The position numbers and the translations under genes were made by a program. A stretch of 57,582 bases of DNA, taken from positions 1-57,582 of the IMG/VR virus record IMGVR_UViG_3300037751_000355. The stretch is one strand, 5' to 3'. The notes under the pieces were generated by a model. It made no database searches. It saw only the letters and a list, made by a program, of their open reading frames with translations, and was not told the DNA's origin. Below are positions 6,764 through 57,582 of the stretch, one piece after another. Numbering within the stretch: the first letter of the stretch is position 1; each line of letters starts with the position of its first letter. This DNA comes from a virus. Taxonomy: Duplodnaviria; Caudoviricetes.

Positions 6764-6925
6764 ACTCCCTCCTCCTCCTAATCGTGACTCCTCCTTCAAC
6801 CGCTTCAAGAGAGATCACCCAACGCGACCGCGACGCTCCGTGCCACCTCCCCCAAAGGTATCCGCACGCGAAGAGCACGGGCGCGACGAGAACGACCGTC
6901 CACACAAAGGCCCACTCGTCGGGTG

Positions 6926-8321: not shown

Positions 8322-9347
8322 CTAGATCGACCTCCTCCCCGAATAGAGCTGGAACGTCTTAGGCAACCTGTAGGCGTCGTCTCTGTCCTCAGAGTCAACG
8401 TCCTCCTCCTCCCGGCAACGCTCCCAACTATACGGAGCGTTCCAATGCGCCTTCAACCCCCTATCAACATCCCACCACGGATCTAGCTCCTCCTCCTCGT
8501 CCAAGTAATGCCACACAACCTCCTGCCAATCCTCCACCTCGTCCTCCTCCCATTCATCATCTATCACTTCACGATCACACAACAACAACGATTCATCGAA
8601 TCCGACAAGCCTATCCCTTAGGTCCTCTGCGAACACTAGATCCTGACTCTCGCGGCTCGAATGCTGATTCTCATATCCTACCGAGATGTTAGTGCACTCA
8701 GGAACGAGCCCAGCGTATGACTCGGAATCGGTATAAACTCCCGATGGGTCCGGCGCGGCTCCATAATCGTGAAGCTCTAGCGCGTCGATTAACGACCATG
8801 CGAATACATCCGAAGCGGTCCGGCGCCCGCATTGGTGCGTTACGACGGAATCCGTGCCCCGTCGGTCAAGAGAGATGGCGTACCTAATGCCGTCCAGTAG
8901 CTCGGGCGTTCGACGCGCTATGTGACTCGACCCGACGCAACCTAGCTCCTCCCCACGGTGGAAGATATAAAGCCCAGGCACGCCCGCGCGGATCATCTCT
9001 AGCATAAGCCAAACGCCCGTAGTGTCGTCGGCGCCTAGACACTCTAGGTGCCTAAAGCGCTTCCACGCCTCAAGCGTCGTCGCCCCCTCCTCCTCCTCCT
9101 CCACTTCGGGATGCGCCACAGACGCCACCATACCCACGACGTTAAGCTCTTGCCTACCACCCGTATTGTGGACGGTATCGGTATGCGATAGCCACGCCAC
9201 GCGCGATCCCTCCCCGACCCGTAGGACGTAATTCCCCGCGTTGTCTGGCGTCGCCCCCGTGGGCTTGATAAAGCGCCGAATGAATTGGCGCTCCGTTCGA
9301 CTCCCTGCGGGGCGTTTATACGTGAGCATATCGAGTAGGTTAGTCAT
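8322..9347 (-). CDS. M28/M20-like zinc metallopeptidase with acidic tail
   Basis: SHTDTVH, LGADDTTG, GEELG, SLDRRG, TNISVGY..QH. Confidence 0.85.
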   Translation of the reverse strand: MTNLLDMLTYKRPAGSRTERQFIRRFIKPTGATPDNAGNYVLRVGEGSRVAWLSHTDTVHNTGGRQELNVVGMVASVAHPEVEEEEEGATTLEAWKRFRHLECLGADDTTGVWLMLEMIRAGVPGLYIFHRGEELGCVGSSHIARRTPELLDGIRYAISLDRRGTDSVVTHQCGRRTASDVFAWSLIDALELHDYGAAPDPSGVYTDSESYAGLVPECTNISVGYENQHSSRESQDLVFAEDLRDRLVGFDESLLLCDREVIDDEWEEDEVEDWQEVVWHYLDEEEELDPWWDVDRGLKAHWNAPYSWERCREEEDVDSEDRDDAYRLPKTFQLYSGRRSI

Positions 9348-16615: not shown

Positions 16616-17158
16616 ATGGGGGGTAAGGGTAAGAAGGAGATAGAAAGCAATAAAGCGGTGTGGCTCGCTAAGATCGAGGCGGGCGAGATTGTTTCGATTC
16701 CACCCGAGAAGAAGGAGAACGTTGAAGACCTTCCGAGATGGGTTAAGACCGCGCTCGTTTTGTGGAAGGTAGACGGTAACTCTTATAAAGAGGCTGCGGC
16801 GCGCTTTAACAAGGCAGGAGGTACTCTTTCGTCTTACGCGAGGTCCCCGGCCGGTAGGAAGTGGCTCTCCTCCCTTGAGTCCTTCATCGAAGACCCTGTG
16901 GCGATGGCGAAGGCTTACCTTAGTGCGAATGCCCTCTCCGTCACTCTAGAGCGCTTCATCTTCCTCCAAGCGGCGATTGACGCCGGAGACTACGCGACAG
17001 GAGATAAAATTGCGAAAGACCTCCAAGATCGGATGGGAATCGTTGCGAAGAAGGCGGATGCGGGGGCGGTTTCGGTCAAGATCAACTTTGGGGGTGCGAA
17101 CTTCGACGCCCCGGTTGTCGAGGCGGAATGGACGACGGAAGGAGACGATGAGGAATGA
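16616..17158 (+). CDS. terS: Terminase small subunit with sigma70 region-4-like HTH
   Basis: Immediately upstream of TerL (ATGA overlap); LPRWVKTALVLWKVDGNSYKEAAARFNKAGGTLSSYAR HTH; C-terminal beta-strand tail. Confidence 0.7.
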   Translation: MGGKGKKEIESNKAVWLAKIEAGEIVSIPPEKKENVEDLPRWVKTALVLWKVDGNSYKEAAARFNKAGGTLSSYARSPAGRKWLSSLESFIEDPVAMAKAYLSANALSVTLERFIFLQAAIDAGDYATGDKIAKDLQDRMGIVAKKADAGAVSVKINFGGANFDAPVVEAEWTTEGDDEE

Positions 17159-18888
17159 GTGAGCTTACGATTACTCCCGGAGGGGATGAGTGGAAGAACC
17201 TCCGGAAGTTGTGTACCGAGACGCTTCCCGGGAAGAGGTCGGCTCTATACTTCCTTAATGCGAAGGTGAGGGGCCTCGAAACTGTCGTTCCTATGACTTA
17301 TCGGGCGCATCTCGCGATGTGTCTTTTCTCGGAGGACGCCACCGGCATCCCCGAGATTGACTCCGCACGCATCAAACTCATCCTCGTTCCCCGAGGTGTG
17401 GGGAAGTCAAGCATGATAACCAAGGGGCTTCCGATCCTTCGAGTTCTTCGAGATCCTGAGTACGCCACCGGAATTGCTAACGAAACCGCCGAACTCGCTT
17501 CGACGTTCCTCCAAGACATTAAGGCGGAATTTGAGTCGAATCAACTCCTTCAAATCCTCTTCCCCGAAGTTATTCCCGACGATTTCCGAGCGACGGTGTG
17601 GAAAGCGGATCGGATTATCACGAAGCGGAAGAAGTCTAATCCTACGTCTCCTACGGTACTAGCGACGGGTGTGGGAGGAACCAAGACGGGCGTTCACCAA
17701 AACGAGTGGATTGGGGACGACCTTTTGAGCCAAAACGCCGCCGAGGCCGCTTATCGGGGGAACGCGGCCGAGATCGAAGCCACGAACCGCTGGATCACGC
17801 GTCTCCAACCGCTCCTTAAGTCCCCGAAGCGCGATCCTATCAAGTTTATTGGGACGAGATGGTGGGAAGGGGATTCGTACGAGTTTGTGGAGGACTTTTG
17901 GGGGCACGAAGAGGAGCGAAAGGAGTTCCTTTGGACTCTTAAGCTTCCAGCGCAGAAGTTGGAGTGGGAAGGGGGAATCGTGGATCGTCCCCCCGAGACT
18001 CAGACGATTAAACTCTATCGGAGAGGTGAGGTTGCGGTCTTTAAGTTCCCCGCAATCGACGCTAACGGGAGGGCAATCTTCCCCGAGAGATATAACCTCG
18101 AAGAACTCCAACAGATGCAGGAGGAGGACCCCGTCTTTTATGCGGGACAATACCTCTTGGAGCCCACGGCGGGCGCCGCTTCGATCCTAGATCCCGCGTG
18201 GTTGAACACGTACGAGATCGACGGGAATGCGATCCTCTTCGACAACGCCGCGACGGGACGTAAGGAGTATCTACCCTTAAAGGACTTAACGGTGCTCATA
18301 AGCGTAGATCCCGCGTTCTCGAAGAAGTCCTCGGCCGCGAGGACGGCGATTCCGGTCGTGGGAACCGACGGCGAGCGACTCTTCCTCCTCGAAGACTTCG
18401 CGGAGCGCCTTGATTCGGAGGACGATATTGCGGCGCATGTAGTCAACTTCTACCTTCGCTATCGCAATTACGGGTGTAAGATCCCGAAAATCTTCGTCGA
18501 AACCATCGTCGCTCAGGTGGCGGTGGCGAACGCGATCCGACGCCGCTTCCGCGAGGAAGGCCTTGGAGAGCCTCCGCTCGAAGAGATCAAGAGTCACGGC
18601 CAGAAGTCTAAGGTGATGCGGATTTATGGCCTCGAACATTACGGGAAGCGAGGTATCATCTACTACCACAAGACCCAAACGAAGTTCTTCATGGAGTGGG
18701 TGTCGTTTCCGCGCGCAATCCTCCGCGATCTCCTCGACGCCATCGCCTTCCAGGTGGATGAGTGGGAGCGGATCTTCAAGATGCAACATTTCGGAGGTGG
18801 AATATCTCGGGAGGGCATCGTGAAGCGCAACGAAAAGGCGAAAGAGCGGATTCGAAAGGCGTGGGGGAGGAAGCGGCGCCGTTCGTAA
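17155..18888 (+). CDS. terL: Terminase large subunit
   Basis: PRGVGKS Walker A, IGDDL Walker B, IGTRW, SVDPA nuclease motif, FPR...DLLDA. Confidence 0.92.
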   Translation: MSELTITPGGDEWKNLRKLCTETLPGKRSALYFLNAKVRGLETVVPMTYRAHLAMCLFSEDATGIPEIDSARIKLILVPRGVGKSSMITKGLPILRVLRDPEYATGIANETAELASTFLQDIKAEFESNQLLQILFPEVIPDDFRATVWKADRIITKRKKSNPTSPTVLATGVGGTKTGVHQNEWIGDDLLSQNAAEAAYRGNAAEIEATNRWITRLQPLLKSPKRDPIKFIGTRWWEGDSYEFVEDFWGHEEERKEFLWTLKLPAQKLEWEGGIVDRPPETQTIKLYRRGEVAVFKFPAIDANGRAIFPERYNLEELQQMQEEDPVFYAGQYLLEPTAGAASILDPAWLNTYEIDGNAILFDNAATGRKEYLPLKDLTVLISVDPAFSKKSSAARTAIPVVGTDGERLFLLEDFAERLDSEDDIAAHVVNFYLRYRNYGCKIPKIFVETIVAQVAVANAIRRRFREEGLGEPPLEEIKSHGQKSKVMRIYGLEHYGKRGIIYYHKTQTKFFMEWVSFPRAILRDLLDAIAFQVDEWERIFKMQHFGGGISREGIVKRNEKAKERIRKAWGRKRRRS

Positions 18889-19005: not shown

Positions 19006-21930
19006 ATGCCTTTACTTTCCGAAGTTAAATTCGGTCCCGAGCGTAAGGAGGAGTTTCTCGCGTGGATTCGCCGCGAAATCCTCCAAACCGAAGGTGATCG
19101 TGCGGGGCTTGAGAGGACGTGGGAGAATCACCTTCTCGCTTGGAGGGCGAAGGTTACGGATGAGGAACTCGATTATCCGTATCCCGGAGCGCCCTACTCC
19201 CGCGACACCGAGATCCTTACGCGCACCGGCTGGAAAGCCATCGACGAAGTCGAGGTCGGTGAGTACGTCCTGACGCGACGAGATGAAGATTCCGCGCTTG
19301 AGTGGAATCCTGTGCTGGCTAAGCCCTCTGTATGGGCCAAGGAACTCTATCATCTCCAGAGCCAGACCGTTGACCTCATGGTCACGGCCGGACATACGAT
19401 GGTGGTGGAGAACCAGAAAGGTGAACTCAAGAGGATGCCGATGGAGGATATGTGGGGGAAAGAAGGCTATTTCATCCCCCTCATGGGCACATACGAAGGT
19501 GTTGACGCTGAAAAGCTTTTCGGGCTTGATGCTGAAGATGTCGCTGAGTTTGTCGGGTGGTATATCGCAGAAGGGTCCAAGACCAACTCCGGTAGTGTGC
19601 TGATTGCCCAGAAGAAGCCTCACGGGCGCCGCGCGTTGGAGGCTCTGTTTGAGCGTCTTGGGTTCTCCTACACGGCCTACCCCAATAGCTACACCGTCCA
19701 TGCGAAATCCATGCCAGATCAGCTTCTGTTCTGGCTTGATATGGGTGTATGTGACGAGAAAAGGATTCCGGGGTTCTTTTACGGTGCATCTCCTAGGATC
19801 ATCAAGCGCCTGTTTGCGGGGATGATCGCGGGCGATGGGCACGTAAAGTGGGCTCCTGGCGCTAACCATCCGCAGATTACCTACCATACTACGTCTTCTG
19901 GGCTGGCTGACGACTTCCAGGCTCTAGCTCAGCTCATTGGTAAGCGTTCTACCATCATCTATCGGGACCGCAGTGGTGAACCCGGCGGTACGATTGATGG
20001 AAGGACGATCGTGGCGACCCGCAAGCAGGCTTCAATTGGCTTGCTGCATCACACGAGGGCGAAGATCCGTAAGCAGCACTACAAAGAAGTCGTCGAGTAC
20101 AACGACTTCGCCTACTGTGTGACGGTCAAAAACCATGCAGTGTATGTGCGGAGGAATGGGAAGCCGTGTTGGAGCGGTAATTCAAACCTAGAACTCCCCC
20201 TTACGGCGATGCACGCCGACCCCGTCCTCGCCGATATGCTTCAGAGCTTTTCGGCGTCGGAAGACTACTGGCACGCGGTAGCGAAACGCCCCGATCGCGT
20301 AGACGTCGCGTCGGCCCTTAGGGAGGGCCTGACAGCGATCGAGAAGCGCTTCCTTAAGATGCGCCGGATCAACGAGAAGGCCTTCCTCGAAGATATCGTG
20401 CTCGGGACCGCCTTTTACAAGAACCACTGGAAGTCCGAGAGACGGCGCCGGAGGCGTTACGAGGCGGATGGGGAGTCTGTGAGTGAAATCCTCATGGTAT
20501 CCCAACCCTCGATCGAGTTTGTTCCGATCCAACGCATCCGGTTCCCGGCGTATGCGTGGAGTCTCGACTTCAACGCTCCCGGAGGCACTCCTTGGATTAC
20601 GCAGGAGTTCCGATGGAGTCGTGAGGAGTTCGAGCGCTACCGTAAGGGATCGGAGGAACTCGTTGGCTTCGATACGGACGCCGCCGAAGACGTATCGACG
20701 TGGTTTTCGGACGAAGAAGAGCCCATTCGCTCCCTCATGGAGGAGGAAGACGAGTTCGAGGCGTTCGAGGACCTGAAGCACAAGGTCTTCGAGGTGTGGG
20801 CGCGTTTCGACACCCGAGGGGATGGGACGTACGAGGACATCGTGGCTTGGATTCACCTGGGAGTCCCTGCGGTCCTTCGTGCGATCTACTTCCCCAACGC
20901 TCACGGAACACACCCCTTCCATAAGATCAACTACCTTCCGGGATACGGAATCTACGGGATCGGGCTCGCGGAGATCGACGAGTGGGCTCAGGATGGAGCG
21001 ACACAACTCCTCAACGCCCAAATCGACAACGCCCGCCTCGCGAACACGAGGATGTTTTCGGCTCCCGAGGGTTCGATGCACGCGCAGGACGAACTCGTTT
21101 ACCCCGGGAAGGTGTGGTATCTTGGGCCTGACGAAGCGATCGGGGAGGTTCGACTCTCGGATCTTTATCCTTCGGGATTCGGACTCCTTCAGCAACTCGT
21201 TTCGTTCTCGGAACTCCGTTCGGGCGTGAATGAACTCCGTCAAGGAAGTCTCTCGGGCCTCCCCTCTCGAACTCCCGCCACGTCGCTCCTCTCGATCATG
21301 CGCGAGGGCAACAAGCGTTTCGACATGATCCACACGGGGATTCGAGACGTTCACTCCGAGATGGGCCTTCGGATGACTCAGAACGTCGCGCAGCGCGTGA
21401 AAGACGATCCCCTCCGGTGGCAGACGTTCTTTGCAAACGTCCTCGGACCCGAGGACGCCGGTCGCGTCCTCTCGGTCCTAACGTCTCCGGACGTCGAAGC
21501 GATCGAAGAGGCGTTTGGTATTAGCGTTACCGCGACGAGCGCGAGCGTGAACAAGGAAGTAGAGAAGCAGTCCTTCGTTGGGATGCTACAACTCACCCAA
21601 CAAATCCACGCCGCTCTCACCCAAACGATGCTCCTTCACGCTCAAGTCCCCGACCCGATGGTGCAAGCGGTCGCTAAGGCGTCCTTCGTGTCGGGAGTCG
21701 ACATTCTCCGACAACTCCTTGAGCGCTTCGAGGTCCAAAACGTCGACGAGCACATGGGGAACCTCGAAGTTATCGCGAACTCCTTCCGCGCCGAAGGACA
21801 ACCCGGAGGCAACGCCGCTACGGGTCAGTTCTTCGACCAATCCAACCTCGGGATTCTCGGCAGCGCCGGAGGAGTCCCTCCACAAGGCCTTGATATGAAC
21901 TCCATCGCCGCTCTTCTAGGAATCGGATGA
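19006..21930 (+). CDS. Portal protein (P22-like) containing an intein
   Basis: Follows TerL; extein junction reconstitutes the portal motif PYPGA|SNL; YGIGLAE, N..IDN, RTPAT motifs. Confidence 0.88.
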   Translation: MPLLSEVKFGPERKEEFLAWIRREILQTEGDRAGLERTWENHLLAWRAKVTDEELDYPYPGAPYSRDTEILTRTGWKAIDEVEVGEYVLTRRDEDSALEWNPVLAKPSVWAKELYHLQSQTVDLMVTAGHTMVVENQKGELKRMPMEDMWGKEGYFIPLMGTYEGVDAEKLFGLDAEDVAEFVGWYIAEGSKTNSGSVLIAQKKPHGRRALEALFERLGFSYTAYPNSYTVHAKSMPDQLLFWLDMGVCDEKRIPGFFYGASPRIIKRLFAGMIAGDGHVKWAPGANHPQITYHTTSSGLADDFQALAQLIGKRSTIIYRDRSGEPGGTIDGRTIVATRKQASIGLLHHTRAKIRKQHYKEVVEYNDFAYCVTVKNHAVYVRRNGKPCWSGNSNLELPLTAMHADPVLADMLQSFSASEDYWHAVAKRPDRVDVASALREGLTAIEKRFLKMRRINEKAFLEDIVLGTAFYKNHWKSERRRRRRYEADGESVSEILMVSQPSIEFVPIQRIRFPAYAWSLDFNAPGGTPWITQEFRWSREEFERYRKGSEELVGFDTDAAEDVSTWFSDEEEPIRSLMEEEDEFEAFEDLKHKVFEVWARFDTRGDGTYEDIVAWIHLGVPAVLRAIYFPNAHGTHPFHKINYLPGYGIYGIGLAEIDEWAQDGATQLLNAQIDNARLANTRMFSAPEGSMHAQDELVYPGKVWYLGPDEAIGEVRLSDLYPSGFGLLQQLVSFSELRSGVNELRQGSLSGLPSRTPATSLLSIMREGNKRFDMIHTGIRDVHSEMGLRMTQNVAQRVKDDPLRWQTFFANVLGPEDAGRVLSVLTSPDVEAIEEAFGISVTATSASVNKEVEKQSFVGMLQLTQQIHAALTQTMLLHAQVPDPMVQAVAKASFVSGVDILRQLLERFEVQNVDEHMGNLEVIANSFRAEGQPGGNAATGQFFDQSNLGILGSAGGVPPQGLDMNSIAALLGIG
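19192..20181 (+). mobile_element. 330-aa intein with LAGLIDADG homing endonuclease; begins with Pro
   Basis: Block A PYSRDTEILT, block B VTAGH, LAGLIDADG motifs GWYIAEGS and AGMIAGDG, block F AYCVTV, block G WSGN|S. Confidence 0.92.
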
Positions 21931-37436: not shown

Positions 37437-37509
37437 CTGGGGCGGGAGGGTTCGAACCTCCAACCTCCTGGGTAACAGCCAGGCGCTCTGCCGGTTGAGC
37501 TACACCCCA
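37437..37509 (-). tRNA. tRNA-Asn(GTT), CCA not encoded
   Basis: Cloverleaf: TGGGGTG/CGCCCCA acceptor, GCTC/GAGC D-stem, CCTGG-CTGTTAC-CCAGG anticodon arm, GGAGG-TTCGAAC-CCTCC T-arm. Confidence 0.95.
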
Positions 37510-45948: not shown

Positions 45949-46977
45949 TCACGCGTAAACCTCACGCATCTCCGACCACGAAGTCGTAGTCGCCTGCACC
46001 TCCGCAGGAATCACCAACGTCCTCCCCCCAACCTCGAAGGGAACCTCCATCTCTTCACGTACGAGTCGAGCGACTCGTGAAAGATCGCGCGGGGCACAGT
46101 CGAGGAGGATTTCGTCGTGGACGTTTTGGAGTAAACGCAAGGGCGAGGGGTCGTACTTCTCGTAAAGACGCCTAAGGGCTCCGTTAAGGGCCATCGCGTT
46201 TGCGCTTTGGGGTCCGTCCGCAATCGCCTCCCGAACGATCGCTTGGCGCGCCCCGTCCGTGTCGTCCCTCCCGAAGTACATCCGCTTCCGACCGAAAGGG
46301 TTTATCGTAAACTTATACGTGAGCGCTTGCTCGGCGATCTCACCCCACCACGCAACCGTCCGAGGAAAGCGCTCGCTCCAAATCGCTTCCATCTTTTTCG
46401 CCTTCGCCGCCGAGATCGAAACCCCATGCAAGTCGAAGTCGTCGTTCACACTCTTCTGAAGCGTCCTCCACCCAACTCGATACTGTCCGCTTAGGACTCC
46501 CACTTTCCCAAAGGAGTTCCTCCACGTCTTAGGAACCTCCTCCCACCTCGTCTCGTCGTCCCACTCCACGAGAGCCGCGAAGACGTTGTACTCGTCTACA
46601 CCCGAGGTTTGGAGTCGGATGCGGTCTTCATCTCCGGCGATATAGGCGCACCACCGAGCCTCCGCGCGAGAGTAGTCGGCGGCCACGAGTACACGGCCTG
46701 GGTGCGGAATGATCGCATCTCGCACTTTATACAACGAGTCTCCGAGGGCGGTTTTCTTGGGAAGGGTAGCAAGGTTATAGGATCCGGGATCAAAGAGCCA
46801 AGTAGACCCATGAGAAAATCGAGTCGTTTCCGTTCCGGCTGGATTTTGAAAGGAGTGAACCGCGCCATCACTCGCCGGAGCAATGCCCTCATAAATAGAC
46901 CTCATCTTCACGAGTTTTGTGAGTGTAAGGCTCGCTCCGATTAGAGAACGTGCGAGGGGAGCGTCTTCGCGCTTCAC
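45949..46977 (-). CDS. Family A DNA polymerase, polymerase domain (C-terminal half of a split gene)
   Basis: T.R.S, motif A ADYSRAEAR, motif B R....K.......Y, FGRKR, motif C VHDEI. Confidence 0.9.
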   Translation of the reverse strand: MKREDAPLARSLIGASLTLTKLVKMRSIYEGIAPASDGAVHSFQNPAGTETTRFSHGSTWLFDPGSYNLATLPKKTALGDSLYKVRDAIIPHPGRVLVAADYSRAEARWCAYIAGDEDRIRLQTSGVDEYNVFAALVEWDDETRWEEVPKTWRNSFGKVGVLSGQYRVGWRTLQKSVNDDFDLHGVSISAAKAKKMEAIWSERFPRTVAWWGEIAEQALTYKFTINPFGRKRMYFGRDDTDGARQAIVREAIADGPQSANAMALNGALRRLYEKYDPSPLRLLQNVHDEILLDCAPRDLSRVARLVREEMEVPFEVGGRTLVIPAEVQATTTSWSEMREVYA

Positions 46978-48593
46978 GTAGGAATCCCTCCCAAAAGCGC
47001 CTTAAGCGCCGCTTCGTCCGCCGTAGGTCGTCCGTCCTTCATCTTCTTAGGAAGCCTAAGCACATCGTAAAGGAGTGTCTTCATTTGTTCCGTGGAGTTC
47101 GCATTAAACGTCCATCGCGTCTCGCGAGGCGCCCCACAACACACATGACACACCGGAAGCAACTCTCGCGCAAGGTCTTCCTTGCTTCGTTTCGTCTTCT
47201 TGTCAAACTCTAGCTTGTCAAGCATCTCGGCTTTCGTCGGCGCCTTCTCGAACCCCGCGCACGCCCAACACGCGAATTGCTTATTCTTCCCGTGCCCACA
47301 ACAAGTGCACGTCGGATCAGTCTCTTCAAAGAGATGCCTCACTTCGAGGCGCTCCAACTCATCCGCCACGCGATCAAGCAAGGGCCTCACGACCTCAAAC
47401 GCTTCTCGCGACACCTCTTCCGCCCTCGCGGAAAGCGCCTCGACCCTTTCCCTCCGCAACCCATCGTCAACGTTAAGCCCTCGCGCGAGCATATCCACAC
47501 AAGGCCACATAAGACTCCGCTCGTGCTCATACACGTCTTCCGCCCCGACGTCCTCGACCGCCTTCATCACGTAATCCCACACATCGAGCGTAATCGCGCA
47601 GTCCTTCCCATTATAGACAAAGAACTCCTCCTCCGTCTCATAGTCTCCTTTCCACCACTTATCCATCGTCGTCAACGACGCTAAGAACGAGAGACTCTTC
47701 CTCGTGAAGCGGTGCTTCTTCCGATCCTCTTTCGCCCCCGCAAGCTCGGGGTAAGCACTGTGCCAAGCGATTTGGGCGTCGTCAACACGCGCCTGAAACT
47801 TCACCCCACACCGATGCTTCAGAACAAAGAGATCATAGATCCCATTCGCCCACACCGTCGTCACGCCTCGGCTTCCAAGAAGCTCCGAAGCTCGATCAAG
47901 ATATTGCGCAGGGAAGACGTACGCCTTTCCGCTTTCGCCAGCAAAGCCAATACATGCGAGTGAGGTGTCTGGCCTCGTCTCAATGTCTGAGCTAAGGACT
48001 CGAAAGCGTCTAAGATCGCTAAGAGCGCGTCGAGCGTCACGATCGCTTCCGATGATCTCGACGTTACGGGTCGGTCGTACACACCCATCTCGGGATATCC
48101 TTTGAGCTTTGAGAAGGTCTTGGGTTAGGAGGGCGCGCCAGGGACTCCACGCTCTCGCAATGCTTGCGGGGTGCGTCGCCGCCGCGACGGGCGCCCCTAC
48201 GAGAGAGTCGAATACATACCCTCGTCGGTTTTCGATATCGGTCGCCCTTCGGATGTCTCCCCGATGACCGAGCGCTCCCCCGACGCGGCCATCAGGCCAT
48301 TCCTCGACGAGAGCGTGGCACGCCTCGGCGCCTAACGCCACGATCACACGAGGTTTAAGGCGTCGAAGGCGTTCGTGGAGGGCGTCGACTCCTTCGGCGA
48401 TCCCGAAGCGTGAGGCGGCAGCGAAGAGCCCTCTCGGGGGAGTCTCTTGGAGGATCGTGAGGATCTCGACTCTATCTCGCGTGAGCCCCGCCTCCCGGAG
48501 CGAGTCGTTAAGAATCCGCTCCCACTCGTACGCGGATACCGAAGACTTCCCGACACGATGGAGTCCAGGGAAGTCCGCTACGAGAGCTAGCAC
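46974..48593 (-). CDS. Family A DNA polymerase N-terminal half: UDG-like domain, 3'-5' exonuclease and Cys-rich thumb insertion
   Basis: VIVALG.EA...THPA (UDG-like); DIET, ANGIYD, YNGKD (Exo I-III); CTCC/CWAC/CHVC; FNANS..Q...LLY. Confidence 0.85.
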   Translation of the reverse strand: MLALVADFPGLHRVGKSSVSAYEWERILNDSLREAGLTRDRVEILTILQETPPRGLFAAASRFGIAEGVDALHERLRRLKPRVIVALGAEACHALVEEWPDGRVGGALGHRGDIRRATDIENRRGYVFDSLVGAPVAAATHPASIARAWSPWRALLTQDLLKAQRISRDGCVRPTRNVEIIGSDRDARRALSDLRRFRVLSSDIETRPDTSLACIGFAGESGKAYVFPAQYLDRASELLGSRGVTTVWANGIYDLFVLKHRCGVKFQARVDDAQIAWHSAYPELAGAKEDRKKHRFTRKSLSFLASLTTMDKWWKGDYETEEEFFVYNGKDCAITLDVWDYVMKAVEDVGAEDVYEHERSLMWPCVDMLARGLNVDDGLRRERVEALSARAEEVSREAFEVVRPLLDRVADELERLEVRHLFEETDPTCTCCGHGKNKQFACWACAGFEKAPTKAEMLDKLEFDKKTKRSKEDLARELLPVCHVCCGAPRETRWTFNANSTEQMKTLLYDVLRLPKKMKDGRPTADEAALKALLGGIPT

Positions 48594-49151: not shown

Positions 49152-50060
49152 TTACTCCTCCGAAAACTGTGCGGACGCAAGCCGCTCTTTATACCACTCA
49201 GGAAGTCCCAACGTCGTCCCCTTCAAGATTTGCTTCCTATAATACCCGTAAAGCATTTGAGCGATCTCATCCGCGCACTCCTCGTGCACATCCACTTGGA
49301 TCGCAGCGATCAGGGGTCCGATGTCTTGAGGAGCGTCTTGCAACTCCCCCACGTCCCGAAGTCTCTCGATCGCCTTCTCCCACCGACGCTCATGACAATA
49401 ACGCTCTTGGATTTGCGCAAGAATATCGTTCTTCGTCGTCGCCTTCCAGCCGGGATTCTTCGAGTGTTGCTCCTTGAACTCCTCCGTGACGTACTTCCCC
49501 ATCAACATCTTCCCATCACGCTCCCCAAAGCGCTCGTAGTTCTTGATAACGATCCCCTCCATCCGACCCCCGAGGAAGCTCAGATTCTTCGTGAGAGCCT
49601 TGAGGGAGTCGAGATCGGAGACTATTCCCCGGTAGAACTCCGGGGTCGCTTCACACCCAATTTCCTCGGCGGCTATCGCGAGGGCGTGCGGGGCGTCGAT
49701 CCGATCCTCGACTCCTCGGTCGATGTCGAAGAGCACCAGATTCCCTAAGGGGGCGCGTTCATACACGAGGGTATTATGGAGAGGGCCGCGCATCGCTTCC
49801 CCCCGATACACCCACCCGTCCACGAGAACCCCTCGCTCAAACGCTGCACGCGCCGTCGCGATGGTCCCCAGGAAGAGCGCATCGGGCGCGTCGGGGTCTA
49901 TCTGACGCCCACGACTCCTCGCGAAGAACTCCCCGTCGCGCACCCCAAAGCCGAATTGACTCCCATCGACCTTTTCTTGCACGACCACAGGACCATCGAA
50001 CAAGTCGCGTATCACGCGATGTCCGAGATTGTAAACCTTCGGGTAGCTAGGAAGCGTCAT
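49152..50060 (-). CDS. RNA ligase (Rnl2-like nucleotidyltransferase)
   Basis: YPKV, motif I EKVDGS, GE, FDI, motif IV EGIVIK, K...FKE. Confidence 0.85.
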   Translation of the reverse strand: MTLPSYPKVYNLGHRVIRDLFDGPVVVQEKVDGSQFGFGVRDGEFFARSRGRQIDPDAPDALFLGTIATARAAFERGVLVDGWVYRGEAMRGPLHNTLVYERAPLGNLVLFDIDRGVEDRIDAPHALAIAAEEIGCEATPEFYRGIVSDLDSLKALTKNLSFLGGRMEGIVIKNYERFGERDGKMLMGKYVTEEFKEQHSKNPGWKATTKNDILAQIQERYCHERRWEKAIERLRDVGELQDAPQDIGPLIAAIQVDVHEECADEIAQMLYGYYRKQILKGTTLGLPEWYKERLASAQFSEE

Positions 50061-52384: not shown

Positions 52385-52761
52385 GCGGATATCTCCTTAC
52401 TCAGTATATTTCCCCGCTCGATAGAACGAACGACAACAGCACCACGCGTGGCCGCTTCCAACGAATCTCGCACCCACTTATCGTGCGCCTCCAAGATCGT
52501 GATACGACTAGCGCGCACCTGCGGCCCCTTGGCGGGCACGAAGGAGGCGTATGGGTGATTGGTTACCCACAACTTGTACGGCCCTAGGTATACGTGGTGT
52601 GGGTCTTCCTCGTTCGATAGGAAATAATAAACTGGCCTAAAAGAGTGTTCAATCAACGCCCCCTTCAAGAGAGTATCCCACCGCGCATCGAAAGGATAGT
52701 TAAGCATCCAGCAACTAGGCGTCATGAAAACCCGCCACGCGCCTTTGAGTTTCTTAAGCAT
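52381..52761 (-). CDS. Hypothetical protein
   Basis: WD..L...LWVTNHPYA motif. Confidence 0.6.
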   Translation of the reverse strand: MLKKLKGAWRVFMTPSCWMLNYPFDARWDTLLKGALIEHSFRPVYYFLSNEEDPHHVYLGPYKLWVTNHPYASFVPAKGPQVRASRITILEAHDKWVRDSLEAATRGAVVVRSIERGNILSKEISA

Positions 52762-53599
52762 TCGAAGCCTCCTCTATCACCCGAAAAAGATCCACAAGCG
52801 AATTCGGAATCTCAGCCTTCGCAAGTCTCGGAACGATCGCCGCCTTCGCGTGGCGTTCCGAATCCGCATTGAGTTGCACCACGTAGCGGGAGGTGCGTTC
52901 CATCTTCGACCCTACCTTCTCCAGAGCATGCACCACACTCGTAAACCCCACAACATCAAACTCCCCCGCGATCTCCCTCCGATACCCCCCTTCGATCATC
53001 GGAAGCGCCTCGCCCATAAACTCCACCCCTTGGGCGCGATGGTCTTGGGACTCCTTCGTCCCCCCACCCTGGTTCTTTGGAAGCTGCGAATCCTCCTTCA
53101 CGGGTTGCGCGTGAACGGTCACAAAAACGTGTTTCGGGCGAGCGAGGTCGGGAGACGCAAGCCCCGTGAGGGCCTGGGTGAAACCCTTTAGCTTGTACTT
53201 CAGGGCTCCATAAAACCCAATGGAGTCTCGGAGGTCGCGTGGAGTTTCGCACCTCTCCGGTGCGAGGAGTTCGTGCGCCGCGAGCATCACCGCATCGGTA
53301 AGAGGATCTAGAAGGACGGCGTCGTACGTTTCGTCCTCGTAGAGCGAGAGGACCTTCTCGAAGAGCTTCGTGAAGGCACCCGCCTCGTACCTAGCGATTG
53401 CGGGCGCCCATCCGTGGTCCCTATAGACCTCCGAAGGGACGTTGTGCTCACGATACTTGTAGGAGTTAACCTCCCTCGGCTTGGGGGCGAGGAGGATGGG
53501 TGTGAGGCCCGCCTCTGTCGCCGTCCCGAGGAGCCACGACTTCCCCGTCCCCGGAGGGCCGATGAAAAGTCCCGTTAAACCTCCGCGAAGGGCGCTCAT
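52754..53599 (-). CDS. AAA_24 (Sak4-like) recombination ATPase
   Basis: GPPGTGKS, VLLDPLT, H, FDVVG, AK motifs. Confidence 0.75.
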   Translation of the reverse strand: MSALRGGLTGLFIGPPGTGKSWLLGTATEAGLTPILLAPKPREVNSYKYREHNVPSEVYRDHGWAPAIARYEAGAFTKLFEKVLSLYEDETYDAVLLDPLTDAVMLAAHELLAPERCETPRDLRDSIGFYGALKYKLKGFTQALTGLASPDLARPKHVFVTVHAQPVKEDSQLPKNQGGGTKESQDHRAQGVEFMGEALPMIEGGYRREIAGEFDVVGFTSVVHALEKVGSKMERTSRYVVQLNADSERHAKAAIVPRLAKAEIPNSLVDLFRVIEEASNA

Positions 53600-53829
53600 T
53601 CCGGCCCCACTTGCACAAGGCCATAGTCATCCGTGTCGTACGGATCTCCTACCTCGTAAAACGCAAACACCTCAAGCCTCCCGGCAGATGTCTCACGAAT
53701 CCCCACGAGCGTCAAACCATGAGTGATGTCTTCAAGGACCATATATCCGTCCTCCTCCCTAAGCTGATACTCCACGACGTCAGTCTCTTTCTCGGCGAAA
53801 ACCTTAAGCTTCATCTCTCTTCCCTCCAT
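53596..53829 (-). CDS. Hypothetical protein
   Basis: Coupled ORF. Confidence 0.5.
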   Translation of the reverse strand: MEGREMKLKVFAEKETDVVEYQLREEDGYMVLEDITHGLTLVGIRETSAGRLEVFAFYEVGDPYDTDDYGLVQVGPE

Positions 53830-53838
53830 TCTGTGTCG

Positions 53839-54447
53839 TCATACAGCCTCCACTACTTCATCCGCTCCCACGATCGCGAGCGCCTGATCCGCATTGAGGA
53901 GCACCCTCCGCTCCCCCTCGACCTCAAGATCCGTCCCCGCATACAAGGAGTAAAGAATCCTCGCCCCTACGTAAAGGTCCTCGTCCTCCACATCTCTCCC
54001 AACGTCCACGATAACTCCCGTGACAGGCCTCTTCTCGCTCGTCTCGGGACGAATCACAACCCCTTTCTGCGTCGGAGCGTCCGGCCGCACCAAAAGCCTC
54101 GTTCCAAGTGTCTTCATAGTCTCCTCACGATTCCAAGGAATAACCCGCGCCACGAGTGCGGCGTGTAGAAGGTAACGCTCCCGCACCCGAGGGGCAACCT
54201 CCCCGTCAAATCTCTCCTCCTCTCCGATCTCGTAATCTAGGAAGATGCCTGAGTTCGGAGGAGTCACGAGGATGTCGCCTTCGTGAAGCGTCATTTTGAG
54301 GTGTTCTTCCGCCTCTTTCGACGAAACCGCAACCTCCCAAAGCGCCCTCGAATTATCTTGACGCCACGCGGGGGCAATCCAAATCCCCCTCGCCTTCTCA
54401 GGCTTCTCGTACTTGTGAGCAACGATCAATTCGTGTCTAAGGCGCAC
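53839..54447 (-). CDS. Tandem GroES (Cpn10)-like co-chaperonin
   Basis: Second domain MKTLGTRLLVRP...GVVIRP...GVIVDVG...VGARILY..YAGT is GroES-like; first domain is a degenerate GroES in the same frame. Confidence 0.75.
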   Translation of the reverse strand: MRLRHELIVAHKYEKPEKARGIWIAPAWRQDNSRALWEVAVSSKEAEEHLKMTLHEGDILVTPPNSGIFLDYEIGEEERFDGEVAPRVRERYLLHAALVARVIPWNREETMKTLGTRLLVRPDAPTQKGVVIRPETSEKRPVTGVIVDVGRDVEDEDLYVGARILYSLYAGTDLEVEGERRVLLNADQALAIVGADEVVEAV

Positions 54448-54599
54448 CGCGCATCTCCCGGAAGAGTTCTCTGAGGACAAAGTTTCCACCGCCGCTCCGT
54501 GCAAGGAGCCGATCCCCGTTCGGGAGGAACGCGATTTGCGCACGTTCGGCGTCAAAGCCTTCAAGGTCACCGAACGATTCCACATAAAGGCGTGCGGCG

Positions 54600-54833
54600 T
54601 TACCCGTGAAGAGTTTGAGTTTCGTTACCCACGAACCCAAAAAGACGTTGCGAAGACTCTCGAACCACAGCTTCGGCCACGTATGCCGACACTCCGGTTC
54701 TCCTAAGAACCTCCACACACTCCGCGAAGCGTTCGTCTTCGCGTGGGATTTGGATTAGAGGAACGCGAGCGATCCACCCGCCGTCGACCGAGACGTCTCC
54801 GAACCGCGTGGGAGAGACTTCTAGGAGTCTCAT
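54600..54833 (-). CDS. Hypothetical protein
   Basis: GAGGAGG RBS. Confidence 0.5.
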   Translation of the reverse strand: MRLLEVSPTRFGDVSVDGGWIARVPLIQIPREDERFAECVEVLRRTGVSAYVAEAVVRESSQRLFGFVGNETQTLHG

Positions 54834-55033
54834 ATCTCCTCCTCTTCCACGAGGCGAGCACCGATCATACCTTCAATAAACCTAGTCGCTTCCGAGGCCG
54901 ACGCCTCGTCCTTGAACGAGGCCAGTGGATATATACCCATCGGTGTCCACATGTAGAGAGACGGCCTCTTGCGACCCGGCAGCTTGCCTACGCACAGCTT
55001 CGGCTTCCCGTCCTGTCCAATGCAGATACTCAC
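54830..55033 (-). CDS. Hypothetical protein
   Basis: GTG start overlapping the SLOG gene stop; GRKRPSL...LASF motif. Confidence 0.55.
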   Translation of the reverse strand: MSICIGQDGKPKLCVGKLPGRKRPSLYMWTPMGIYPLASFKDEASASEATRFIEGMIGARLVEEEEI

Positions 55034-55416
55034 GGCTCGTTCCCTCCTGTCCCCTCGGGTGCGGCGCGGGCGGCGGCAACGTCGTGGACGTAGACCGTCA
55101 GTCCCTTGGAGAGCGCAGTTTCGATCATGTGCTTGGTTCCGCGGCTCGATCCGTCCCACACCGCTATCAGGGCGTCGGCGTTCGCTGCCATCTCCACATT
55201 GCGCCGGAATCCTGCTGAGTTTCCCCACAGCCTCCACATAGCCGGGTAGTATTCAACAGGGATGCCACGCTGTGACGCCCACTTCTCGCCCTGCCTGTCG
55301 ATCCCACGAGCGCCACCGGACAGCACGACCGTGGGCAAGATGCCCGATTCCTCCACGGCCTTCACCACGAGTGTGTAGCTGTTGAGGTCGCGGGAACCGG
55401 CGATGATCACCCTCAT
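55030..55416 (-). CDS. YspA/SLOG (DUF2493-like) protein
   Basis: IIAGSR, VLSGGARGID..GE.WA, AG..RN..MA..ADALIAVWDG.SRGT..MI. Confidence 0.85.
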   Translation of the reverse strand: MRVIIAGSRDLNSYTLVVKAVEESGILPTVVLSGGARGIDRQGEKWASQRGIPVEYYPAMWRLWGNSAGFRRNVEMAANADALIAVWDGSSRGTKHMIETALSKGLTVYVHDVAAARAAPEGTGGNEP

Positions 55417-55613
55417 GGCTCATTACCTCCCCTCCCCTCGGGTGCGACTCGATCCACGTACACAGACCACCTCGTGCCATCGGGTAGGTCGAACGTCATC
55501 CGCCCCGTGGCCGCTCCGTCCTTGGGTACGTCGTGCTTGCCGGTCATGGATCCGTCTACGGCTTCTCTCGTCACGAGATCCCAAAGCTTTTCAATCGGAT
55601 GCTTCTCGGTCAT
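55413..55613 (-). CDS. Hypothetical protein present only in allele B
   Basis: Starts MTEKHP at an ATGA overlap; ends in the GCACCCGAG junction; absent between the same neighbours at 117-120. Confidence 0.65.
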   Translation of the reverse strand: MTEKHPIEKLWDLVTREAVDGSMTGKHDVPKDGAATGRMTFDLPDGTRWSVYVDRVAPEGRGGNEP

Positions 55614-55843
55614 GATTTCTCCTCGGGTGCGGCGCGGAGACGTTTGAGTAGGTCGCGGGCGTCTCGCAGCGCGACTCCGATCACGAGGTCGGGGTCGTGG
55701 TTCGGGCGTGCCGGAATCGACATGACCCACTCGCGCGAGCCCTCCCTGCCTCTCGGCTTGCACAGCGCGGACACCATATCCCACGCTCGGTCGATGCGCG
55801 CCTCGATGGCGTCGAGGCTCATATCTCGGTCACTAGGCGTCAC
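55610..55843 (-). CDS. Hypothetical protein (allele B of 117-353)
   Basis: Near-identical translation. Confidence 0.8.
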   Translation of the reverse strand: MTPSDRDMSLDAIEARIDRAWDMVSALCKPRGREGSREWVMSIPARPNHDPDLVIGVALRDARDLLKRLRAAPEEKS

Positions 55844-56081
55844 TGGTTGCTTCTCCCGTATCTGTCGTGGCGCCCCCGGAGCGGAGCCGAAAGGAAAAGA
55901 GTTCTGCTAGCGTACGCGCGTGCCAGGGCCGGGACCAATCACTCCACGCGCCAGTGAACGCGTCCATCACTTCCGTGAGCGTGTAGCGGGGCTCGGAGGA
56001 TCTCTCCGTGAACGCCCACGAGGGTCGGCGAGTCACAACCCCTATCTGGCCACAACACGGGCACCTCTCGGCCACGCTCAT
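55833..56081 (-). CDS. Mosaic hypothetical protein (allele B)
   Basis: Shares EPRYTL and RLRSGGATTDTGEATSD with the end of 340-1452. Confidence 0.6.
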   Translation of the reverse strand: MSVAERCPCCGQIGVVTRRPSWAFTERSSEPRYTLTEVMDAFTGAWSDWSRPWHARTLAELFSFRLRSGGATTDTGEATSDA

Positions 56082-57582
56082 TGTCCGTCCCCCATGTCGC
56101 GGGGCTCGGCTGCGGGCTCGGGGGAGCGGAGCGCGGCGAATGCGGCCTCGGCCTTCGCTTCGACATCACGTGCGACAGACTCGTCGACCGCTATGTACAG
56201 GCACCGGAGTGCCTTCCTGGCTTCGGCAAGCGCATCCCCCACGTCGGCCCCTCGCACGTCCTCGGAGGCGTGTCGTTCGCACGGTGTTGGTAAGATGCAC
56301 ATCGCTTCTTGGCCCCAACCGTCCGTAAAGAACGCCCCGCAGAGGTCCATCTTTCGGATCCGCGTTTGTACATCCTTCTTCACGGACTCGTCCGAATCGA
56401 CGTCCTCGGGCACCACGTCCATGTCGTTGACCATCGCTAGGAAAGCGTCGTCGTAGTCGGGGAAGTCGGCGGGCTCGGGATCTGGCTCATGACGTGTCGG
56501 CGCGGCGATCTCACCGACCGCGGCCATCGGCTCGGGCCGTACGTCCTCGGGGGAGCGGCGACGGTCGGTGCCGGTGCGATTCCACACGCGTCCGCTTGCA
56601 GCAGCCTCGGCCGCGTGTCGGACGTCCGGGTCACGCTCCCCCCGGGGACGCTCCCTCCGTCGCTCGCGCGGCGCGTCTCCAGAGAGCGACTGGCCGCATT
56701 CCTTACACGGCAGAAGGCCGCGACACGTGCCCACGATGAGCGCGCCTACGGGGTCCTTCTTGGCCCACGCCTCAGACGCGATCTGCATGACCCGCCCGTA
56801 GCCGAACCGCCCGCACAACGCAACGACCTGCTGCTCCTCGTGGTCGCGCTGCTCGACGCTCGGGTCGGGGCGCCCGGGGGAGCGGCGACGGTCGGTGCCG
56901 CGGGGGTTTGTACCGACGAGCCTCTCCCACGCCAACCGTTGGTGGTCTGGTAAATCGACACTACGCCTCTCGCCCCCAACCCGGCGCACGTCCTCGGGGG
57001 AGCGGAGCGCGGCGACCAACAGACCGATGAGTCGGTGGGCCTTGGTTATGTGATCGTTGAGTGTACCGCTCGGAATACCGTCTCTGAGGTAGCCATGATC
57101 GAACTCGCTGGCCTCTCTAATCAGAGCACTCACGTCGGCCCCTCGCACGTCCTCGGGCACCACGTCCATGTCGTTGACCATGGCGACGTGATCGGGGTCC
57201 GCTGCCGTGGGGGCGGGTCCCCCGGACGGAACCCACGCTGCGCCCGTCCAGAACCGAACCGGCACAACATCAATGCCCAGAAGCCTCGCGGCTGCGATGC
57301 GGTGATGGCCGTCGATGACGGTCCATGTGTCATACCGGACAGTCACCGGCTCACAGATGGGGGCACCCGCCAACAGGCTCTCGTAGACCGCATCAAAACG
57401 CTTGTGTCCGGGGGCGAGTTGCGGTGTTGGCGGCCACTCGGTGCGAAGAAGTTGAATCGGTACCATCACGCATCTATCCCCCTCCTCCGTCTCGGCGGGC
57501 TCGGGAGCGACTGGCGCGGGCACTCGCCACCAGTTCGCGATGGAAGTAAACCAGCGATCGGTGAGGTCGACACACGCCGTGT
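56078..57582 (-). CDS. Mosaic multi-module protein with ParB/Srx-like module (5' truncated by window end)
   Basis: Frame open to the window end; P.TV......VIDGHHR..AA..LG...VPV; repeated linkers. Confidence 0.75.
   Translation of the reverse strand, partial: TACVDLTDRWFTSIANWWRVPAPVAPEPAETEEGDRCVMVPIQLLRTEWPPTPQLAPGHKRFDAVYESLLAGAPICEPVTVRYDTWTVIDGHHRIAAARLLGIDVVPVRFWTGAAWVPSGGPAPTAADPDHVAMVNDMDVVPEDVRGADVSALIREASEFDHGYLRDGIPSGTLNDHITKAHRLIGLLVAALRSPEDVRRVGGERRSVDLPDHQRLAWERLVGTNPRGTDRRRSPGRPDPSVEQRDHEEQQVVALCGRFGYGRVMQIASEAWAKKDPVGALIVGTCRGLLPCKECGQSLSGDAPRERRRERPRGERDPDVRHAAEAAASGRVWNRTGTDRRRSPEDVRPEPMAAVGEIAAPTRHEPDPEPADFPDYDDAFLAMVNDMDVVPEDVDSDESVKKDVQTRIRKMDLCGAFFTDGWGQEAMCILPTPCERHASEDVRGADVGDALAEARKALRCLYIAVDESVARDVEAKAEAAFAALRSPEPAAEPRDMGDGQ

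Follow-up and report, generated by a model that had tools for sequence, protein, structure and literature searches.

A putative segmentally hypervariable early-gene locus with short in-frame junctions in a tailed phage

How can the two ends of one phage contig share a series of short repeats, in the same order and the same reading frame, when the coding sequence between the repeats is unrelated? The question is raised by the IMG/VR virus record IMGVR_UViG_3300037751_000355, analysed here over its entire length of 57,582 nucleotides (nt), hereafter called the window. The record is listed as linear with a CheckV completeness of 100 and encodes a tailed phage. The variable locus lies in a minus-strand early block, between a PD-(D/E)XK nuclease gene and the SLOG and Sak4-like genes, and is found as version A at the start of the window and as version B at its end (Table 1). 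We read it, with a probability of about 0.7, as an early-gene region that is hypervariable segment by segment, its pieces being exchanged through homologous recombination at short identical-by-descent tracts. Such a locus would consist of two adjacent scaffold genes with interchangeable cassettes of 0-200 amino acids (aa). The main gene would have the layout MSTPERP...PRERR - RRRSPEDV - AMVNDMDVVPEDV - RGADV - ALRSPE(PAAEP) - SAEPATGRD..GGEPRYTL - RLRSGGATTETGE-stop, and the upstream gene the layout ...LLSAPEPAETG - ALRSPAPTAAEP - LATPEAEGGxK-stop. The junctions would be DNA tracts of 12-33 nt and a few longer blocks, identical by descent and fixed in order, strand and frame, and the cassettes would include small helical modules, zinc ribbons, NUDIX, ParB-N-like and HNH endonuclease domains and a small domain that many other phages encode as a stand-alone protein.

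Junctions, inserts and rearrangement end points

Comparison of the two ends with blastn (1-4000 against 53001-57582) gave 21 same-strand, largely collinear matches, three of them long (96.5-97.6 % identity) and all others 17-45 nt at 84-100 %. Between 1-2286 and 55297-57582 there were 22 collinear exact matches of at least 14 nt, compared with a mean of 0.03 and a maximum of 1 in 200 first-order Markov resamples; 23 other 2286-nt slices of the window had no such match to end A in 17 cases, one in four and two in two. Every linker is encoded by the minus strand and follows the longest open frame, and GC (guanine plus cytosine) content by codon position supports the minus-strand frames 340-1611 and 56078-57580, the 143-nt block common to both ends being ambiguous in this respect. 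An earlier, sequence-only reading of the window had described short in-frame junctions that form a collinear scaffold around differing inserts, and this description was confirmed, as were the positions of all the repeat pairs it listed and the presence of two copies of AMVNDMDVVPEDV in version B (56400-56452 and 57147-57199, 85 % identity over 53 nt). The pair described as RLRSGGATTDTGEATSD does match but is not a short linker, being the end of a 268-nt conserved stretch that includes the whole of a 77-aa gene.

The pattern is not confined to the window. Exact k-mer scans found the 24-nt EDVRGADV junction in six other IMG/VR contigs, the 21-nt ALRSPE junction in five and the 22-nt TDRRRSP junction in two, and the three scans together returned a single set of six contigs (L009-L014). 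A metagenome scan with the 18-nt ALRSPE core gave 105 stretches, among which blastn identified only L037 (the same contig as L013) and L067 as relatives; the other stretches align over at most 111 nt and were taken as chance matches in GC-rich DNA. Cellular genomes, sampled at one per species, had no match to two junction k-mers of 21 and 29 nt and thus gave no hint of a host or prophage. Two protein searches yielded 25 distinct proteins of 171-514 aa that carry the junctions. Against the window, these related loci appear in blastn as strings of 20-45-nt matches at 93-100 % identity with unalignable DNA between them. The same architectures occur in material from JGI, ENA and Logan, and the stretch is present in 23 studies. 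The expectation of a pattern spread across a population thus held, in six viral contigs, one metagenome contig, 25 proteins and the Logan contigs of four runs.

Pattern parsing gave one junction order common to the 25 proteins and the open reading frames (ORFs) of the loci, namely PRERR, RRRSPED, AMVNDMDVVPED, VRGADV, ALRSPE, (AEP), SAEPATGRD, GGEPRYTL and RLRSGGATTE in the main scaffold and APEPAET, APTAA and TPEAEGGxK-stop in the upstream scaffold. The junction peptides are rich in P, E, R, S and A. In the six non-redundant loci the longest open frame holds 42 of 42 junction DNA copies, with none on the opposite strand. The 11 copies of the G junction (EDVRGADV) all agree over 21 nt, 13 copies of the S core CTCCGCTCCCCCGAG show no difference, and a 12-nt core, CGCTCCCCCGAG, with or without GACGTG, is common to several junction types. 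Several of the codons used in the junctions are rare in the phage (CGA 0.16, CGT 0.16, GCA 0.08, ACA 0.06, GCT 0.17), and the product of codon frequencies puts the chance of the same codons arising by independent encoding at about 1e-3 per junction. In pairwise alignments of the six loci, junction columns were 97.5 % identical as against 89.2 % for other aligned columns; inserts shared between loci were 79-89 % identical.

To describe the inserts, 33 proteins were taken, two without junctions were dropped and the remaining 31 were cut at the junctions, after which the pieces were grouped by blastp single linkage. The type counts are approximate, group m03 lumping unrelated N-terminal pieces, and the instance counts include the near-identical sequences winB, P0001, P0002 and L012. 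Read in that light, the G-S slot (EDVRGADV to ALRSPE) held 12 insert types in 22 instances, the Y-C slot eight in 17, the S-T slot seven in 12 and the N-R slot six in nine; T-Y, with one type in 13 instances, is one conserved block. The junctions therefore do not always flank the same inserts. Neighbouring slots are also uncoupled: the G-S type m04 occurs with four different downstream inserts and m11 with three. Inserts span 0-200 aa and several families, and there are two to six modules per ORF in varying architectures, family support being limited to NUDIX (a G-S insert of P0008, Pfam 2.5e-11), HNH and a weak ParB-like match. One insert, m05 (LELAWGIIANAYGGDW...RWRDEHWHP), has 1218 representatives at E of 1e-3 or below in a 50 % library. 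Many of these are stand-alone proteins of 53-135 aa without junctions, which suggests that the payloads are autonomous small phage modules.

The small domain of the form LELAWG(L/I)IANAYGGDW..EW(R/K)xAAxRWRDEHWHP (P0028-P0167), with its 1218 representatives, is very widespread and occurs mostly in proteins of 53-150 aa. Pfam and PHROG scans of proteins with the LELAWG...RWRDEHWHP domain gave no match for that domain.

Rearrangement end points fall at the junctions. Protein P0002 is version B with precisely the stretch between the 26-nt TDRRRSP repeats missing, and L012 resembles version B from 56680 to 55080 and, upstream of the 143-nt block, version A. In Logan contigs from four runs and four studies the region is split into pieces of about 100-530 nt, and 13 of 13 joints among those listed run from junction to junction (for example 56139 to 56230, 56264 to 56542, 56262 to 56875, 56566 to 56655 and 57217 to 57481). 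Because their short sides measure 20-35 nt, these joints are best read as contigs with other inserts between the same junctions. Support for insertions, deletions and replacements at the repeats comes from comparison only (L012, L014, P0002 and the Logan contigs).

End B and the backbone of the phage

The early operon runs on the minus strand from about 3300 through the A locus into the 5' portion of a SLOG-family gene (120 to 1), which makes up the first 125 nt of the window. The SLOG fragment ends on a codon boundary and is in frame at 55296, so a circular or permuted unit of 55,296 nt carrying version A is the simplest reading, and such a unit is inferred here. The contig exceeds one genome unit, and version A belongs to the window phage.

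The sequence-only reading had treated A and B as two alleles of one genome. This is more than the sequences show, since from 57582 to 55259 version B matches the locus of a different phage at 100 % (L014, with a single 16-nt indel as the exception; L067 over 1006 nt), and L014 differs from the window in terminase and portal. Below the switch point at 55258/55259 there are 40 substitutions against L014 in 55258-55087 (172 nt, about 77 % identity) and then no similarity. Within a single community, A and B are alternative versions of the same locus, and B is either a recent recombinant of the window phage or, somewhat more likely, an assembly walk into an L014-type phage by way of the shared SLOG segment; both readings rest on the identity with L014 as far as 55259, the break of the Logan unitigs of X1-X3 at 55259-55288 and the contigs that extend past 57582.

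The recombinant, in which end B would be a true second haplotype of the window phage whose locus was acquired from an L014-type phage through crossing over within the SLOG gene, is a possibility that we hold only tentatively. The contig itself links B to the backbone of the window phage, and in X1-X3 the window-type 3' half of the SLOG gene (55041-55288) and a B-type unitig (55259-55650) are both present and adjacent in the graph; exchange of the locus between backbones also matches the remaining data. On the other hand, the switch lies only 38 nt from 55297, where the contig begins to repeat itself, and among the Logan contigs listed none bridges 55258/55259 with at least 31 nt on each side and none shows the A-type skip from 55421 to 55622; stretches lacking Logan cover were given no weight as evidence. 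Four Logan contigs (X1-X4) extend 945-6069 nt beyond 57582, as does L014, whose upstream DNA does not match the window, and version A closes the SLOG gene in frame.

Whichever account of B is preferred, locus and backbone have different affinities. In tblastn, the L014 ORFs outside the locus (terminase, portal and upstream genes) had no match in the window, except that two overlapping small ORFs on opposite strands match 6754-6929. The GC content of the locus is 62-68 % in all contigs, and that of the remaining fetched DNA is 52 % in L010, 55 % in L014, 58 % in the window, 60 % in L011, 66 % in L009 and 67 % in L013; in the window, the locus (1-3300 plus 55259-57582) has 65.8 % GC against 58.2 % in 3301-55029. 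The locus is thus a GC island in four of six cases (window, L010, L011 and L014) and not in L009 and L013. By these comparisons it appears to be an island of high GC that passes from phage to phage although their backbones are unrelated.

Version B is a fusion of both scaffolds plus a second M-G-S set, and the terminal part of the scaffold, which in A belongs to the main ORF, is an ORF of its own in B. The fused long ORF is not intact in all phages, because L014 lacks 16 nt; this absence, which looks like a slippage deletion, shifts the frame and turns the long ORF into two overlapping ORFs. The junction pair PRERR-RRRSPEDV that bounds the 143-nt block flanks different inserts in other contigs. 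Between the APEPAET and APTAA junctions the sequence-only reading had placed a ParB/Srx-like domain, a label that stays tentative: the long ORF had eight PHROG matches, six of them ParB-like (8.8e-5 to 8.9e-3, residues 58-112), and the nearest ESM Atlas cluster was ParB_N (score 0.95, 176 shared features), whereas Pfam gave no match at E of 1 or below. The AlphaFold2 (AF2) model of this insert has a pLDDT (predicted local distance difference test) of 41. The ParB-like module is conserved in four different flanking contexts.

In version A, an HNH endonuclease domain occupies residues 80-225 of the upstream gene in frame (Pfam HNH_3 1.2e-10; PHROG endonuclease 6.5e-34). Its position is marked by a 23-nt repeat encoding ADRILA (2756-2778 and 977-999), and ADRILA directly precedes an ALRSPE or LLPAPEP junction in winA 340-1611, L013 and P0018. 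Since ADRILA adjoins a junction directly in relatives, the HNH domain looks like an in-frame insertion into a helical module. The 69-aa gene between the two A scaffold genes had weak Pfam zinc-ribbon matches only, all under the curated cut-offs, and no relatives of the A-specific ORF were found in IMG/VR.

Elsewhere in the window, head and tail protein genes lie on the plus strand with the terminase and portal genes. The two DNA polymerase ORFs (45949-46977 and 46974-48593) adjoin with a 4-nt overlap and match successive stretches of phrog_17, positions 555-913 and 930-1236. An Rfam scan of the window found the tRNA alone and no other RNA family. A search of a phage database gave a single match, of the SLOG gene to Salinibacter phage M8CRM-1 (76 % over 113 nt), which is too weak to indicate host or habitat; the runs that hold the stretch carry sediment and soil metagenome labels.

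Table 1. Positions of the features of the locus, of the matches between its two versions and of other genes in the window
Feature	Position	Strand	Remarks
Version A
SLOG (YAcAr) gene, first 40 codons	1-120	-	1-112 exact copy of 55297-55408
77/78-aa gene kept in A and B	117-353	-	within 268-nt match, 96.6 %
Main scaffold gene	340-1611	-	423-aa open frame; likely start MSTPERP at 1452
Main gene junctions, first half	PRERR 1237-1251; RRSPED 1123-1140; DVRGADV 1105-1125	-
Main gene junctions, second half	LRSPEP 961-978; EPRYTL 484-501; LRSGGATT 373-396	-
Small CxxC...CxxC gene (zinc-ribbon-like), 69 aa	1679-1888	-	between both A scaffold genes
Upstream scaffold gene, 361 aa	1885-2970	-	ORF list
Upstream gene junctions	APEPAET 2257-2277; ALRSPAPTAA 2056-2082; TPEAEGG-TK-stop 1894-1911	-
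Version B
SLOG-family gene, complete, 128 aa	55030-55416	-	Pfam YAcAr 4.5e-13; ends in APEGTGGNEP-stop (55029-55068)
66-aa gene, present in B, absent from A	55413-55613	-	between two 40-nt gene-junction copies
77-aa gene	55610-55843	-	counterpart of 117-353
Last scaffold part, separate 82-aa ORF	55833-56081	-	EPRYTL 55977-55994; LRSGGATT 55863-55886
Long ORF, 500 aa, open to contig end	56078-57580	-	both scaffold genes fused
Long ORF junctions, single	APEPAET 57488-57508; APTAA 57200-57214; PRERR 56657-56671	-
Long ORF, MVNDMDVVPED	57149-57181 and 56402-56434	-
Long ORF, DVRGADV	57131-57151 and 56240-56260	-
Long ORF, LRSPE	56990-57007 and 56114-56131	-
Long ORF, RRRSP	56873-56890 and 56543-56560	-
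ParB-N-like insert, APEPAET-APTAA slot	57215-57487	-	unrelated acidic 58-aa insert in A
143-nt block, PRERR to RRRSPEDV	56538-56680	-	end match to 1118-1260, 96.5 %
16-nt stretch without counterpart in L014	56794-56809	-	CGGGC on each side
26-nt direct repeat (TDRRRSP)	56548-56573; second copy 56875-56900	-
40-nt standard gene end (CCCGAGGGGACAGGAGGGAACGAGCCGTGA plus flank)	55029-55068 and 55412-55451		tail APEG(T/R)GG(N/S)(E/K)P-stop
40-nt gene end in relatives (oriented coordinates)	L009 1220; L012 1669/2237; L013 7030; L014 7950/8518
Other matches between the window ends
End match	1-125 = 55297-55421		97.6 %
End match	132-399 = 55622-55889		96.6 %
End match	463-503 = 55956-55996
End match	962-994 = 56115-56145
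End match	964-986 = 56993-57015		100 %
End match	1095-1130 = 56230-56265
End match	1105-1131 = 57131-57157		100 %
End match	2048-2073 = 57192-57217
End match	2250-2278 = 57480-57509
Other genes
PD-(D/E)XK nuclease	5569-6471	-	Pfam PDDEXK_1 2.7e-11; upstream, same strand block
Peptidase, early block	8322-9347		phrog_4191 3.9e-71; Pfam Peptidase_M28 5.6e-4, under cut-off
Large terminase	17155-18888	+
Portal	19006-21930	+
tRNA-Asn (GTT)	37437-37509	-
DNA polymerase, two ORFs	45949-48593	-
RNA-ligase-like gene	49152-50060	-
Sak4-like annealing-protein gene	52754-53599	-	phrog_124 8.3e-11; same operon, downstream of scaffold genes
GroES-domain protein, 248 aa	53839-54585	-	early; C-terminal GroES-like domain, phrog_3188 1.1e-7

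Proposed mechanism and competing explanations

According to the proposed mechanism, general homologous or annealing-type recombination between co-infecting or co-resident phages or prophages would cross over inside the tracts, and unequal recombination within one genome would occur as well. Since the reading frame of a given tract never varies, any crossover would leave an open frame. Different junction types recombining at the core CGCTCCCCCGAG(GACGTG) would give rise to the duplications, deletions and gene fusions of version B. The enzymes may be the Sak4-like protein and the PD-(D/E)XK nuclease of the phage, both candidates, or RecA of the host; phage annealing proteins are described as recombining short, diverged sequences (PMC5499656, PMC3945230, PMC5928155). 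The sequence-only reading had invoked a Sak4-like ATPase, an exonuclease and a single-stranded-DNA-binding protein (SSB); genes for the first and for a nuclease are indeed present, but the SSB model PF00436 had no match in the window, where a divergent SSB could still be encoded. The selective reason probably lies in an arms race in which early functions of an accessory or anti-defence kind are at stake.

The assembled sequences bear out a junction grammar, identity by descent of the junctions, reassortment of neighbouring inserts and end points inside junctions. Several points nevertheless weigh against shuffling by recombination. The evidence is a comparison of assemblies, in which no recombination event is directly observed, and junctions as long as k-mers (the 143-nt block, T-Y at about 90 nt and M at 33 nt) could allow assembler chimeras that stay in frame, so that part of the apparent reassortment may be artefact. 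The insert types derived by single linkage are approximate and near-identical sequences were counted. A Sak4-family match was found in one of five related contigs, which are fragments of 22-61 % completeness, and the Sak4 model is unspecific, matching 13 of 14 control cellular genomes. The very strong conservation of the peptides (the RSPE core, always in frame) is also compatible with a role for the junctions as such, for instance as a cleavage site or an internal start, and the family is small, with about seven contigs and 30 proteins.

It is considered unlikely that the junctions owe their conservation chiefly to acting as signals, either polyprotein cleavage sites in the product or translation signals, with recombination as a by-product, although several observations fit such a role. 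The peptide cores RSPE, PEDV and AEP persist in distant members despite differing DNA, and the junctions are always in frame. The DNA of EDVRGADV contains GAGGGG, 5 nt and GTG, resembling a true stop/start junction, CCCGAGGGGACAGGAGGGAACGAGCCGTGA. True gene ends nearby use a very similar 40-nt junction with a Shine-Dalgarno-like (SD-like) GGAGG and an overlapping GTGA/ATGA start, also seen in L009, L012, L013 and L014; it terminates the SLOG gene and the 66-aa gene of version B and closes several unrelated small genes across phages, and EDVRGADV resembles this stop/start unit without the stop. In a low-confidence AF2 model of scaffold protein P0021 (mean pLDDT 51.8) the junctions lack secondary structure (pLDDT below 50) and the modules are helical hairpins. 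An M28-like peptidase gene lies about 5 kb upstream of the locus, and separation of domains by peptidases has been argued for polyvalent proteins (PMC5512222). The peptidase gene at 8322-9347 has a bearing on the polyprotein explanation only. Against such signals, a stop and restart lie inside an insert (version B is split at 56078-56081), so that covalent continuity is not required, and the frame of L014 is shifted by its 16-nt deletion. The GTG of the G junction is not the start of any ORF in the family, scans of family proteins revealed no peptidase domain within the ORFs, and selection on the peptide cannot account for identical minor codons.

A dedicated site-specific system that moves the cassettes, whether by a junction nuclease such as HNH, an unrecognised recombinase or a templated mechanism, is very improbable. 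The extreme uniformity of the junction DNA, the 12-nt core common to several junction types and the HNH endonuclease in frame inside version A would suit it, but the HNH domain is present in just one of six non-redundant loci and the junction types differ outside the core. Pfam model searches of the window gave no match to Phage_integrase, Resolvase or RVT_1, in keeping with the suggestion of the sequence-only reading that no dedicated recombinase, here a tyrosine or serine recombinase or a reverse transcriptase, is involved. Neither attC-like nor inverted repeats were found at the junctions, and the RNA fold of the 143-nt block was no better than that of shuffles (z = -0.27). Integrons, shufflons and invertases employ a recombinase with attC sites or inverted repeats, neither of which was found here, where all junction copies are on one strand. 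Diversity-generating retroelements combine a reverse transcriptase with template and variable repeats that differ at adenines, whereas the window lacks RVT_1 and whole segments are replaced.

Still less credible is that the entire mosaic is an artefact of metagenome assembly, with chimeras formed at short repeats. In four Logan runs the region is broken up into contigs of only about 100-530 nt, 8-23 of the 16-56 Logan contigs per run fit no more than partly, and chimeras made at in-frame junctions would remain open. Most junctions, however, have 15-31 nt of exact identity, below the k-mers that decide contigs, and Logan contigs cross them with different inserts, each of which must be physically joined to both its junctions. 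The same architectures come from the independent sources named above, and L067 and L014, which are other assemblies, reproduce version B at 100 %.

Ordinary divergence of one multi-domain protein with functional motifs and no shuffling, to which the conserved motif order might point, can be dismissed, since inserts of the same slot differ in length (0-200 aa) and family (NUDIX against 40-aa helical modules in G-S, a ParB-like against an acidic 58-aa piece in P-A), the same insert occurs with different neighbours, and identical junction DNA lies between unalignable flanks.

Relation to known systems and implications

The locus works like the motifs of the gp38 adhesin and like the PeSL (promoter-early stem-loop) cassettes of T4-type phages, yet it is a member of neither. 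In the T-even adhesin gp38, glycine-rich motifs (GRMs) separate hypervariable segments, and recombination takes place between the motifs (Trojet et al. 2011, PMC3157838). The likeness is that conserved short motifs in fixed order alternate with hypervariable segments in one frame, as they do here. Trojet et al. cite Tetart et al. 1996 and 1998. Whereas gp38 is a tail-fibre adhesin of the virion, the present locus lies in the early region, and 10 family proteins scanned with PHROG matched no tail-fibre family. The GRMs are believed to make up the structural core of a single domain, the variable segments being its loops (PMC3157838), whereas the junctions here are rich in P, E, R and S and, by a weak model, predicted to be unstructured. 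Unlike gp38, the inserts are whole autonomous modules or domains of up to 200 aa, the scaffold can split into separate ORFs, and the locus is common to phages with unrelated backbones.

In T4-type phages, the hyperplastic regions contain PeSL cassettes, short repeats that flank non-essential ORFan genes, recombination between them leading to insertion, deletion or replacement (Arbiol et al. 2010, PMC2839356; treated also by Comeau et al. 2014, PMC4122927). Standardised short repeats with indels and replacements between them are found here too, by comparison only. A PeSL is an intergenic sigma-70 promoter with a terminator hairpin, whereas the present junctions are within ORFs, translated and without a hairpin. 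The nearest parallel is the 40-nt APEGTGGNEP-stop stop/start junction, which has an SD-like GGAGG in place of a promoter, no promoter scan having been made.

Polyvalent proteins combine 2-15 conflict-type domains per polypeptide, with ParB/Srx-type domains recurrent, and a role in early infection has been proposed for them (Iyer et al. 2017, PMC5512222). They resemble the present proteins in their variable strings of domains in one polypeptide, but they are large multi-enzyme proteins, often with a zincin-like peptidase and DNA-linked delivery; here the proteins have 170-514 aa and mostly tiny modules, and no peptidase domain was found. The main text of the polyvalent-protein paper describes no standard nucleotide junctions and uses the word 'linker' 0 times (PMC5512222).

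Phage annealing proteins, through relaxed homologous recombination, have been invoked to explain the mosaicism of temperate phages (De Paepe et al. 2014, PMC3945230; Hutinet et al. 2018, PMC5928155; Neamah et al. 2017, PMC5499656). As there, diverged phages here exchange DNA at short identities, and a Sak4-like gene is present in the window. These studies describe opportunistic crossovers at any identity, usually near gene borders, and no fixed, ordered, in-frame junctions within genes. A full-text literature search, with supplementary files outside its scope, found no comparable in-frame junction scheme in phages, and among the titles and abstracts listed by a search on hypervariability in Salinibacter phages none dealt with a locus of this kind. 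Segmentally variable genes, such as the pilin genes pilE/pilS of Neisseria, have conserved framework stretches that alternate with variable minicassettes, and recombination in the framework swaps the minicassettes. That system serves cellular antigenic variation with silent donors in one genome, whereas here the donors are other phages and the cassettes whole modules.

A bolder proposal, which we regard as doubtful, is that the junctions, rather than being passive remnants of shared ancestry, are a selected, community-wide standard of in-frame connectors, kept by their own homogenisation and sharing the core CGCTCCCCCGAG(GACGTG), which would let the unrelated phages of a habitat trade, stack, duplicate and delete ready-made accessory domains as one translatable string or as a cleaved polyprotein. 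If this were true, the connectors would be a viral counterpart of modular cloning or exon shuffling.

The locus also carries a warning: when the terminal repeats of a viral contig have diverged, the assembly can have walked from one phage into another that has such a locus in common with it. Phage mosaicism is usually described gene by gene, with crossovers at or near gene borders, whereas the units of exchange here are sub-genic, and the crossover points form a small fixed vocabulary of in-frame, identical-by-descent tracts common to phages with unrelated terminase, portal and flanking genes. If confirmed, the locus would offer a natural system for measuring the shortest tract of identity that supports exchange between phages, its junction k-mers could serve as bait to list the accessory and anti-defence payloads of a phage community, and it might provide a design rule for the in-frame swapping of domains.

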